The notes beneath the pieces were generated by a model that was not told where the DNA came from, did no database searches, and saw nothing but the letters and a program-made list of their open reading frames with translations. DNA of 64,000 bases. It comes from a phage. Positions 28,423 to 30,532 of the stretch are shown here, piece after piece. Positions within the stretch are counted from its first letter, which is position 1. Every line of letters begins with the position of its first letter. The position numbers were made by a program, and so were the translations under genes. Location: sequence record PV874203.1. One strand, written 5' to 3'.

Positions 28423-30453
28423 TTAACCTCTATTCAATGAACATTTAGGAGAATTACAATAAACTTGATTCATAGAACCAAGCGTACAACTTTCAGCATC
28501 GCGCCACGGAATCTGCTTAAAACACTCTGAACAGTAGCCGAGGGTTGACCACATTGCTTTGGTGAAGTCAGTGCTTCGGTTTCCGTCGAAGCTGACAACA
28601 GTTTTGCGGAGAGCTGTTCGTGATTCAGGAAACACACCTGCTTTCTCAGCAGGTTCCTCCTTTTTTGGCTTAGTTGAGATTGCAAAAATACTGTTGCTAC
28701 GTTTCTCAACATAAGCATCAACAACGTCCTCCAGAGTGATGCCTGTCTGTTTCGCTGAGGAAGGTAATACAGTCATACGACCGATCATATCTTCAGTTAC
28801 ACGTAAAGCAAATTCAGGACGACGGGTGTTTGTTGTATCTGTTGCTCTAATCCAGACATAACCGTCTTTGATCGTAGCATTAGATACTTTCTTCTTTACA
28901 TCTACAGCGCAGACTTTACAGATATCTTCACCACGAAGACGACTAAGTTCTTCATCGAACTCATTCTCTGTTTTAACTTCACCACAGATTTCACAAACAC
29001 CAATAGGAGTTTCCTCCTCTTCTTCATCTTTAGGTTTAGTCAAACCTTCCAGACATTCAGGATGCCAGTAGCACTGATATGCGAAGGCTGCTTTAGGTGC
29101 ATCCTTCCAATCAATGTGTTTGTCACAACCACCACAATCACCATGAGAGTGTGCTTCCCAGAACTTACGAGTGATAGTAACGCCATTCTTATTGACGAAA
29201 CTATCATTCATGTCAAAAGGGATATCATCATCAAAGTCAGCAGTAGTAGACTCAGGCTCCTTTTTCTCCAGAGATGGGTCAACAAAACGACCTGCTGTGA
29301 TCACTAAACGAACCATAGCATTAACTTCGGAGATACAGGATACTGTCCCACGGTAAACGATTTTAGGGTCTTTCAGTGCGTCCTGATAAGCCTTAATGTC
29401 TACGTTATGAACATCACCTTCGATATACTCTTGAGACTTCTCATCGTAGATATAACCGATCATCTTACCACGAGAAGGAACAGCACCAGCTGTTGCATAA
29501 GGAACAAACTCATGTGGTGTGATTTCCACAGTCATGTCGCGGCGAATGTCAATGTTTCGATCGCTTGCGATTTTGTTTTGACTTACCACTGCGTTTCTTC
29601 GACGAACGTCTGCCGCTGTCACTCCCGGCTTCGTGTCGTAAGGATTGCTTGTACTGCTTTTTGAGGAACTTTGATAGTTGCTTTGGCTGTAGTTGTTCGA
29701 GTAGTAATTGCCCCAACGATTGATTACCGTAAAAACCGGAAGCTCGTGGGCGACCTCTTCAACTAGAGTCATGCTGTTGTTTGACATATCAAAGATATAT
29801 TCTGTACCAACTTTACATTCAAAGTGCTCATCAATTCGGTTTTTGTGAGACTTAGAACGCTTCAGAATCCACATCAACATGTCTTCTTCAGAAGCACCAA
29901 ACCAATCTCTGTTACAACGTGCAAGATGGAAAGGGCGCTCTTCATTACGGATGATATGAAGGCGGTTATCAGAAGCATCATGCCAGATCAGTGTGAAAGC
30001 ACCGTCCAACTTTTGGATAGTCTCTGCTGCACCAATAGTGTTAATAGAGTGGCAGATGTTCTCACTATCCACCTCGAAGTTTTTACTGTCAGGTAACAGG
30101 TCTTGGTCCATCAAGGTTCCGTTATGAACCAGAGTGATATTACCATGTTGGAAAGGATGGGCGTTCTTGGCGTTAACTGCACCTTTCGTTGCATGACGGC
30201 TGTGACCAACAATCCATGAAGGCGCTACAGTGTAAGCTGTTTCACCAGTGGTGTGCTTCTTGTACTCATCTTGAAGGATGAATGCGAAAGAAGGAAGGGC
30301 TTCTTTGTAAGTGAAGACCTCCTTAGTGCTCTTACGCTGACCAAAGATACCAGAGGAATGTTGCCCTCGGAATACCCCAGCATAAAAGAGTTGGTTAAAT
30401 ACGTCTAAATCAGTGCTTGACAGATTACCGCCAGCTAATACGATGCCACAAAT
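28423..30453 (-). CDS. Ntn-hydrolase glutamine amidotransferase class II-like protein with Cys-rich C-terminal region; proposed AUU start
   Basis: Frame open upstream of the track start to TAG-AAA-ATT-TGT; translation CGIVLAGG...GQHSSGIFG...HSRHATKGAVNAKNAHPF...HNGT is the GATase-II N-terminal-Cys pattern. Only ATT precedes the Cys codon, with AGGTGG 8 nt upstream. C-terminal part has CGGC/CxxC clusters. Confidence 0.6.
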   Translation of the reverse strand: MCGIVLAGGNLSSTDLDVFNQLFYAGVFRGQHSSGIFGQRKSTKEVFTYKEALPSFAFILQDEYKKHTTGETAYTVAPSWIVGHSRHATKGAVNAKNAHPFQHGNITLVHNGTLMDQDLLPDSKNFEVDSENICHSINTIGAAETIQKLDGAFTLIWHDASDNRLHIIRNEERPFHLARCNRDWFGASEEDMLMWILKRSKSHKNRIDEHFECKVGTEYIFDMSNNSMTLVEEVAHELPVFTVINRWGNYYSNNYSQSNYQSSSKSSTSNPYDTKPGVTAADVRRRNAVVSQNKIASDRNIDIRRDMTVEITPHEFVPYATAGAVPSRGKMIGYIYDEKSQEYIEGDVHNVDIKAYQDALKDPKIVYRGTVSCISEVNAMVRLVITAGRFVDPSLEKKEPESTTADFDDDIPFDMNDSFVNKNGVTITRKFWEAHSHGDCGGCDKHIDWKDAPKAAFAYQCYWHPECLEGLTKPKDEEEEETPIGVCEICGEVKTENEFDEELSRLRGEDICKVCAVDVKKKVSNATIKDGYVWIRATDTTNTRRPEFALRVTEDMIGRMTVLPSSAKQTGITLEDVVDAYVEKRSNSIFAISTKPKKEEPAEKAGVFPESRTALRKTVVSFDGNRSTDFTKAMWSTLGYCSECFKQIPWRDAESCTLGSMNQVYCNSPKCSLNRG

Positions 30454-30532
30454 TTTCTAATCCACCTGAAGGGTAAACCCTTTCATCTAATTAACCTTTA
30501 AATTGTGCCCCTTTATCAGAGGCACCCATTGA

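Follow-up and report, generated by a model that had tools for sequence, protein, structure and literature searches.

A probable AUU start codon directly before the catalytic cysteine of a Kuravirus glutamine amidotransferase, and its recurrence in the protein family

We analyzed a 64,000-nt stretch of phage DNA (sequence record PV874203.1; hereafter the window), which comes from a Kuravirus, a phiEco32-like podophage of E. coli in the subfamily Gordonclarkvirinae with 95-97% identity to phages O18-011, NJ01, and others. On its minus strand, flanked by an Amidoligase_2 gene and an ATP-grasp gene, lies a gene for a glutamine amidotransferase that is the orthologue of phi32_83 of phiEco32. This enzyme is very probably translated from an AUU codon at 30453-30451, directly before the codon of its catalytic N-terminal cysteine. 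Such a start had been proposed in an earlier note on this DNA, and comparative evidence now supports it: selection acting on the first codons, the integrity of a conserved domain, the alignment of Cys1 with that of known enzymes, ATG at the same position in orthologues, and a stop codon immediately upstream.

The minus strand reads TAG (30459-30457), AAA (30456-30454), ATT (30453-30451), TGT (30450-30448), and then GGC ATC GTA (CGIV...), and the first four of these codons were found where the earlier note had placed them. From the ATT the frame comprises 676 codons and ends at a stop at 28423-28425; the full-length coding sequence (CDS; 28423..30453, minus strand) has the same 2031-nt extent as the CDSs of phiEco32 and SU10, and the mature protein is computed at 675 amino acids and about 76 kDa. 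A longer canonical reading frame is ruled out by the in-frame stop two codons upstream of the ATT. The first in-frame ATG, GTG, or TTG past the Cys codon is, as the note also had it, the TTG at 30114-30112, which is codon 113 and is followed by an ATG as codon 114 (TTG ATG, 30109..30114, minus strand). Class II amidotransferases (PurF, GlmS, AsnB) need the free amino group of Cys1 for catalysis. Because the TAG leaves just AAA and ATT before the Cys codon and this amino group is needed, an active enzyme can be produced only by initiation at the ATT followed by removal of Met, which makes the Cys encoded by TGT residue 1 and the nucleophile.

The predicted protein consists of an N-terminal class II, or N-terminal nucleophile (Ntn), glutaminase domain and a Cys-rich C-terminal region of about 440 amino acids. 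Its features are those of class II enzymes: the Cys codon right after the initiator, the Arg, Asn-Gly, and Asp residues, and a Pfam score above threshold. GATase_6 matches residues 75-175 (29926..30228, minus strand) with 55.1 bits against a cut-off of 27, and further matches are to GATase_7 (27.4 bits, cut-off 25) and GATase_4. A PDB search with the single amidotransferase sequence gave no match, and a profile search was required; position 1 (Cys) of the family profile aligned to the mature Cys1 of E. coli GlmS (1xff), E. coli PurF (1ecb), and B. subtilis PurF (1ao0), and the RG, hNG, and D motifs of GlmS aligned with R28, N110-G111, and D128 of the profile. The catalytic signature C1 G2 R28 G29 N110 G111 D128 is intact in the window protein and invariant in the family alignment. 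More distant orthologues carry ATG-TGT with an ordinary ribosome-binding site at the homologous position, including those of Cronobacter phage GAP52, Salmonella phage 7-11, Proteus phage YP1, ECO319P1, PKM.Lu.22.1, PJNS034, and many metagenomic phages, and the position of the start is thereby fixed.

The same region bears on whether the product could begin instead at the downstream TTG or ATG (30114/30111), which would leave the N-terminal 112 codons untranslated and the glutaminase defunct. These are the first canonical in-frame starts, and the CDS is annotated from them in phages Paul, NJ01, and others. Against such a start, codons 2-113 show a ratio of nonsynonymous to synonymous substitution rates (dN/dS) of 0.095-0.10 in a between-genera comparison in which synonymous sites are saturated (dS > 1.3), that is, about 0.1 in the part supposed to be untranslated. 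The TTG falls in the middle of the GATase_6 domain and cuts it in half, and most of the invariant residues of the family alignment, among them most of the catalytic ones, lie upstream of it, with D128 and S129 just downstream. Moreover, the sequence before the TTG holds no ribosome-binding site comparable to the AGGTGG that precedes the ATT. We regard initiation at the downstream codons as highly improbable.

For this gene the ATT start is not a discovery, as it already stands in reference annotations; if correct, it adds one more gene to the few known to initiate at AUU. The 2031-nt CDS is drawn from the ATT in the phiEco32 record EU330206.1 (phi32_83), which dates from 2008, in its RefSeq copy NC_010324.1, in SU10 (SU10_085), and in Bas86, 89, 90, 91, 93, and 94 of the BASEL Bas86-94 set. 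In most other records the CDS begins instead at codons 113-114 (TTG/ATG) or at an internal ATG or GTG specific to the lineage; among the 60 records listed, 48 are without an annotated feature across the start and the first codons, and 3 carry no annotation whatsoever. A literature search, which did not cover the phiEco32 genome paper, found no papers discussing or testing the ATT start. As far as this search found, the recurrence of ATT across the family and the common design of its leaders appear to be undescribed.

Published proteomics of SU10 detected the amidotransferase by 9 peptides, given without their positions, with a listed mass of 63.8 kDa, which is that of the form beginning at the downstream start. 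Taken at face value, this mass counts against the ATT; it is uninformative on the N-terminus. Since the supplementary table of the SU10 authors itself lists the amidotransferase as 677 amino acids, 63.8 kDa is probably the mass of the matched database entry and not a measured size. From the window sequence, the peptides derived from residues 29-112 include GQHSSGIFGQR, EVFTYK, EALPSFAFILQDEYK, and HTTGETAYTVAPSWIVGHSR, and the N-terminal peptide with Cys1 is CGIVLAGGNLSSTDLDVFNQLFYAGVFR.

The ATT is shared across the related phage records. A 61-nt query containing it, made up of the leader and the first codons, was matched in 97 of 97 related phage records (Gordonclarkvirinae), with 100% identity in 69 records and 98.3-98.4% in the other 28; in the aligned genomes, the sole difference from the window within this stretch is the third position of Gly codon 2. 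The same leader sequence also occurs on independent metagenome contigs, and the ATT is kept in Aeromonas phage BUCT695 (locus L006 of the survey described below), in L153 (a contig in a Herbiconiux genome assembly), and in other lineages, some with only about 40% protein identity, such as L051. These data bear on the idea that the ATT reflects faulty sequencing or assembly, or that an ATG was recently inactivated by mutation. In its favor, ATG is one T-to-G substitution away and is the codon found in distant orthologues; the presence of ATT in 97 independent phage records, in several metagenome assemblies, and in lineages only about 40% identical refutes this idea, to which we assign a vanishingly small probability. 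The earlier note would have given up its reading had orthologues carried ATG and the ATT proved an error: the ATG orthologues do exist, but the error is excluded.

Upstream of the ATT, the minus-strand leader reads TTTAAAGGTTAATTAG ATG AAA GGG TTT ACC CTT CAG GTG GAT TAG AAA ATT TGT GGC ATC GTA TTA GCT GGC GGT. The Shine-Dalgarno sequence AGGTGG (30462..30467, minus strand) lies 8 nt before the ATT, in agreement with the earlier note, and forms a duplex with the 3' end of 16S rRNA with a calculated energy of -5.9 kcal/mol; its 8-nt spacer, ATTAGAAA, is of a length found in 9 of the 12 distinct ATT/ATC leaders considered below. A hairpin, AAGGG-TTTA-CCCTT (30469..30482, minus strand; -5.3 kcal/mol), ends 1 nt 5' of the Shine-Dalgarno sequence. 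The leader also contains a 9-codon upstream open reading frame (ORF), MKGFTLQVD plus stop (30457..30486, minus strand), which is in the amidotransferase frame and whose TAG (30459-30457) ends 3 nt, or one codon, before the ATT. This ORF closed by the TAG was one of two features missed in the earlier note, the other being out-of-frame start codons that overlap the ATT (see below).

The arrangement is kept beyond the subfamily. In BUCT695 the leader reads ATG AAA GGG TTA ACC CTT CAG GCG GAT TAG AAA ATT TGT, so that the ORF, its frame, its stop, and the hairpin (with a loop change) are retained and two amino acids differ (F-to-L, V-to-A). In L153 the hairpin has one more base pair, and the homologous UAG is the stop of a long upstream gene and is followed by UAA and then by the ATT.

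The upstream ORF being in frame, one could suppose that translation starts at its ATG (30486), reads through the UAG, and yields a 12-residue extension that is cut off autocatalytically to expose Cys1. Some Ntn amidotransferases are indeed made with a propeptide; in B. subtilis PurF, whose mature chains 1ao0 and 1gph begin at Cys1, this is an alternative route to Cys1 without a Met-Cys start. However, the propeptide route of PurF needs an uninterrupted frame from a canonical start, whereas the phage frame is broken by a UAG, a codon only rarely read through by wild-type E. coli, and in L153 by UAG and UAA in tandem. Other AUU lineages have a nearby stop in a different frame or no ATG upstream, the distant orthologues begin plainly with Met-Cys and have no propeptide, and the upstream peptide is not conserved in BUCT695. 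Read-through is thus very unlikely, and initiation at the AUU itself remains the preferred reading.

This leader is unusually constrained. In an alignment of six genomes from three genera, Kuravirus, Nieuwekanaalvirus (KBNP1711), and Suseptimavirus (SU7, ECBP2), a 67-nt island (30434..30500, minus strand) extends from the ribosome-binding site of the upstream ORF (TAAAGG) to amidotransferase codon 7 and varies at a single synonymous C/T site (GGC or GGT), with 55 + 11 invariant columns. Across the region the three genera share 74-78% nucleotide identity, and third codon positions vary freely. The upstream ORF is identical in all three, and its candidate Shine-Dalgarno sequence, AAAGG (30495..30499, minus strand), is placed 8 nt before its ATG at the 5' edge of the island. 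The upstream ORF thus appears to be translated, the best evidence being that the island starts exactly at its ribosome-binding site. The constraint on the 67 nt exceeds the needs of a ribosome-binding site and a start codon. In the predicted minimum-energy fold, the ribosome-binding site of the upstream ORF pairs with amidotransferase codons 3-7; this predicted long-range pairing, GGUUAAU/AUUAGCU and GAUG/C/UAUC, coincides with the edges of the island, and at the single variable site both variants pair, as G-C or G-U. An alternative hairpin, GGUUUACC / GGUGGAUU, that would cover the amidotransferase ribosome-binding site (-6.1 kcal/mol) was rejected as not conserved; both BUCT695 substitutions would break its pairing.

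To follow the start codon through the family, we used the following strategy. Viral and genome collections were searched with conserved internal peptides, so that the search was blind to the start codon, and 86 usable loci were obtained. Because the catalytic Cys must be the second codon, the start codon of each locus can be read without a gene caller. The codon before Cys-Gly was ATG in 64 loci, ATT in 12, ATC in 1, TTG in 4, and GTG in 3, with 2 of the 86 loci not assigned automatically in this pass. After loci already in hand were added and identical leaders were collapsed, 81 distinct leaders remained: 12 with ATT/ATC, 63 with ATG, and 6 with GTG/TTG. Every ATT/ATC locus is an intact ORF with an in-frame stop a short way upstream and without a canonical alternative start. 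The catalytic signature is complete in 10 of the 12 distinct ATT/ATC leaders; the exceptions are L093, with Ser at 96, and L153, a short contig, with Val at 128. The codon before Cys is ATT (ATC in one case) in L087, L089, L091, L092, L093, L100, L112, L153, L155, and L051, and ATT was likewise observed in L006, L175, L177, L179, and L180. For comparison, annotated bacterial genes start with ATG in 81.8%, GTG in 13.8%, and TTG in 4.35% of cases, and infC and pcnB are the only confirmed AUU starts in E. coli (bioRxiv 10.1101/063800); the background frequency of ATT is uncertain, as gene callers ignore this codon.

The ATT/ATC leaders are scattered on a neighbor-joining tree, and parsimony requires at least 10 switches, with the reservation that the deep branches of the tree are unreliable. 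An old ATT state with many reversions is an alternative reading of the tree and would equally imply long-term retention of ATT. The leader itself seems to move by recombination, as judged from two cases. Loci L112 (ATT) and L106 (ATG), compared over about 1100-1230, are near-identical in coding sequence and unrelated upstream, which places a recombination junction at the start codon. In BUCT695, a member of the Grimontviridae, a Gordonclarkvirinae-type leader is joined to a Grimontviridae-type protein body (about 2500-2560).

Comparison of the leaders suggested that those with ATT/ATC are optimized in several respects. The spacer is 7-8 nt long in all 12 of them vs. 30 of 63 ATG leaders, and a full GGAGG core is present in 4 of 12 vs. 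5 of 63. A hairpin abutting the ribosome-binding site, defined as at least 5 bp with its end 12-18 nt ahead of the start and thus 0-2 nt 5' of that site, was found in 11 of 12 ATT/ATC leaders and 11 of 63 ATG leaders (Fisher p = 1.5e-6). In 10 of 12 ATT/ATC leaders vs. 17 of 69 leaders with canonical starts (ATG, GTG, TTG; p = 2e-4), the start is preceded at 4-5 nt by the end of a stop triplet, in most cases UAG. These comparisons were framed after the data had been seen and ignore shared ancestry, and they are a lead and not a result. The hairpin sequences are unrelated between lineages (AAGGG.., GAACCU.., AGACUAAU.., AAUGC.., GUAGCC.., ACUUAC..), whereas the position of the hairpin is kept. 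Four later ATT loci (L175, L177, L179, L180) were found by the pattern of ribosome-binding site, spacer, and start only, and a hairpin is also apparent, by eye, in all four. Two other candidates for a mark of AUU leaders were rejected: strength of the ribosome-binding site alone gave only a trend (p = 0.06), and coupling to an upstream ORF was not enriched (6/12 vs. 43/69 canonical leaders).

The last count bears on a variant in which the AUU is the start but nearly all initiation is reinitiation after the upstream ORF, the ribosome-binding site serving only as a tether and direct entry of 30S subunits being negligible. Several observations favor it. The AAAGG-8 nt-ATG start region of the upstream ORF is invariant across three genera; the BUCT695 substitutions in the ORF are all amino-acid-changing, so that what seems to matter is that the ORF is translated and not which peptide it encodes; the same UAG closes the upstream gene of L153; in this family, as the canonical leaders show, the gene is as a rule closely coupled to an upstream ORF; and the geometry is identical to that of thrS-infC. 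In this E. coli pair, too, the start is AUU, the stop of the upstream frame lies 3 nt before it (UAA GGU AUU vs. UAG AAA AUU in the phage), and the ribosome-binding site is located inside the upstream reading frame. In reporter work on thrS-infC, translation was attributed in roughly equal parts to reinitiation and to direct initiation (PMC3592434). On the other side, coupling is no commoner among the AUU leaders, the ribosome-binding sites, being strong and well spaced, speak for direct initiation, and a canonical-start ORF terminates close to the AUU in no more than about half of the 16 AUU/AUC leaders, the stop triplet closing such an ORF in only about half of the ATT/ATC cases; leaders lacking one include L051, L093, L155, L177, L179, and L180. 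Because other AUU lineages, e.g., L051, lack the upstream ORF, reinitiation cannot be the general mechanism. For the window gene, near-exclusive reinitiation seems to us rather unlikely, and initiation at the AUU, probably by both routes, is the reading we retain.

The comparison with infC has limits. The infC gene is autoregulated, its own product, initiation factor 3 (IF3), discriminating against AUU, whereas the phage product is an unrelated enzyme; any IF3 dependence of the phage gene would do no more than reflect the state of the host. The phage upstream frame is a 9-codon mini-ORF and not a full gene, and a hairpin abuts the phage ribosome-binding site. The E. coli pcnB and Enterococcus faecalis ebpA genes are alike in their rare AUU start, in a downstream canonical codon that is mis-annotated as the start or prone to be, and in the presumed role of the AUU/ATT start in limiting expression. 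They differ in that their starts were shown by experiment, whereas the phage start is proposed from sequence comparison, and in neither case is the start known to recur throughout a protein family. With GlmS, PurF, and AsnB the phage enzyme shares the N-terminal Cys directly after the initiator and the matching Arg, Asn-Gly, and Asp; these enzymes start with ATG-TGY, and the phage protein differs further in its unrelated Cys-rich C-terminal region and in its location in an amidoligase/ATP-grasp cluster.

Besides the SU10 mass and the after-the-fact framing of the leader statistics, several points weigh against an AUU start. AUU starts are poor, supporting 1-2% of the expression from AUG in one study (bioRxiv 10.1101/063800); in another (PMC3592434), AUG and GUG exceeded AUU six- to eight-fold. 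AGGUGG is an imperfect ribosome-binding site, and one predicted alternative fold pairs it, though this fold is not kept in BUCT695. In addition, each of the other two frames has a canonical codon overlapping the ATT, TTG (30451-49) and GTG (30449-47); as UUG and GUG, they are better starts than AUU and could be decoys that capture many ribosomes. The UUG opens an 8-codon ORF (MWHRISWR) and the GUG a 4-codon ORF (MASY).

Taking the AUU as the start, we propose the following sequence of events. The AGGUGG 8 nt upstream, flanked on its 5' side by the small conserved hairpin, would position ribosomes on the AUU, and some of them would probably arrive after terminating at the UAG of the 9-codon upstream ORF. 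By established knowledge of bacterial initiation, the AUU would be decoded as formyl-Met by initiator tRNA; no phage initiator tRNA reading AUU was found in the window, where the sole tRNA gene is a tRNA-Arg (anticodon TCT; 39587-39662, minus strand). Deformylase and methionine aminopeptidase would then remove the formyl-Met, Cys being a permissive second residue, and expose Cys1. A weak AUU start, discriminated against by IF3, should keep the output of the enzyme low, and from the known action of IF3 this output may depend on the translational state of the host (IF3, nutrient state, guanosine tetraphosphate [ppGpp]).

Across the family, we tentatively suggest that AUU/AUC initiation may be a selected, recurrent design and not a peculiarity of this gene, in which a leader module might license the non-canonical start and would then represent an undescribed type of element. 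Such a module may comprise a short hairpin 0-2 nt 5' of a strong ribosome-binding site, a fixed 7-8-nt spacer, a stop 4-5 nt before the start, and AUU-UGU. The module might act by stacking on the helix that 16S rRNA forms with the ribosome-binding site, or it might trap ribosomes fresh from termination.

Some other elements were observed around the leader. Between the amidoligase stop (30533-30535) and the upstream ORF, folding reveals a terminator-like hairpin, GTGCCTCT / AGGGGCAC (30505..30525, minus strand), whose stem varies between genera with pairing seemingly kept, as judged by eye from the alignment; a terminator scan did not call it, as it is without a T tract. Relatives in the Grimontviridae have a similar hairpin followed by a conserved TTTAAATGTAAA motif. 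An Rfam scan of 30300-30700 gave nothing near any threshold. A candidate antisense sigma-70-like promoter (30417-30444, plus strand) was rejected: such sites are no commoner than in shuffled sequence, and its -35 hexamer is not kept in KBNP1711 and SU7.

Elsewhere in the window, a scan for long ORFs without a canonical start gave only one real case, a frameshift extension of the capsid protein. The major head protein ORF (352 amino acids; 58571-59629, plus strand) contains the classic -1 slippery heptamer GGGAAAG (59611-59617, plus strand) in frame (G GGA AAG), 10 nt before its stop. The -1 frame ORF (59551-60156) is open to 60156, is without a canonical start over 68 codons, and has a translation resembling an Ig-like domain. 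Such a layout fits the two forms of the head protein, 38.5 and 55.4 kDa, reported for SU10.

The start codon matters first for annotation. In most deposited genomes of the Gordonclarkvirinae, the first 112 codons of the amidotransferase are unannotated, and most of the glutaminase active site is lost with them. The affected enzyme belongs to a widespread, uncharacterized phage cluster of amidoligase, amidotransferase, and ATP-grasp proteins. In this family ATT or ATC precedes the Cys codon in about 15% of the distinct leaders, more than GTG and TTG together, and the AUU leaders with their common compensatory features provide naturally occurring material for comparing what allows a non-canonical start to function. 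They also offer a testable hypothesis as to why a phage would want a weak, IF3-sensitive start: if the leaders do act as a module, the synthesis of a potentially harmful glutaminase would be tied to the IF3 or ppGpp state of the host.

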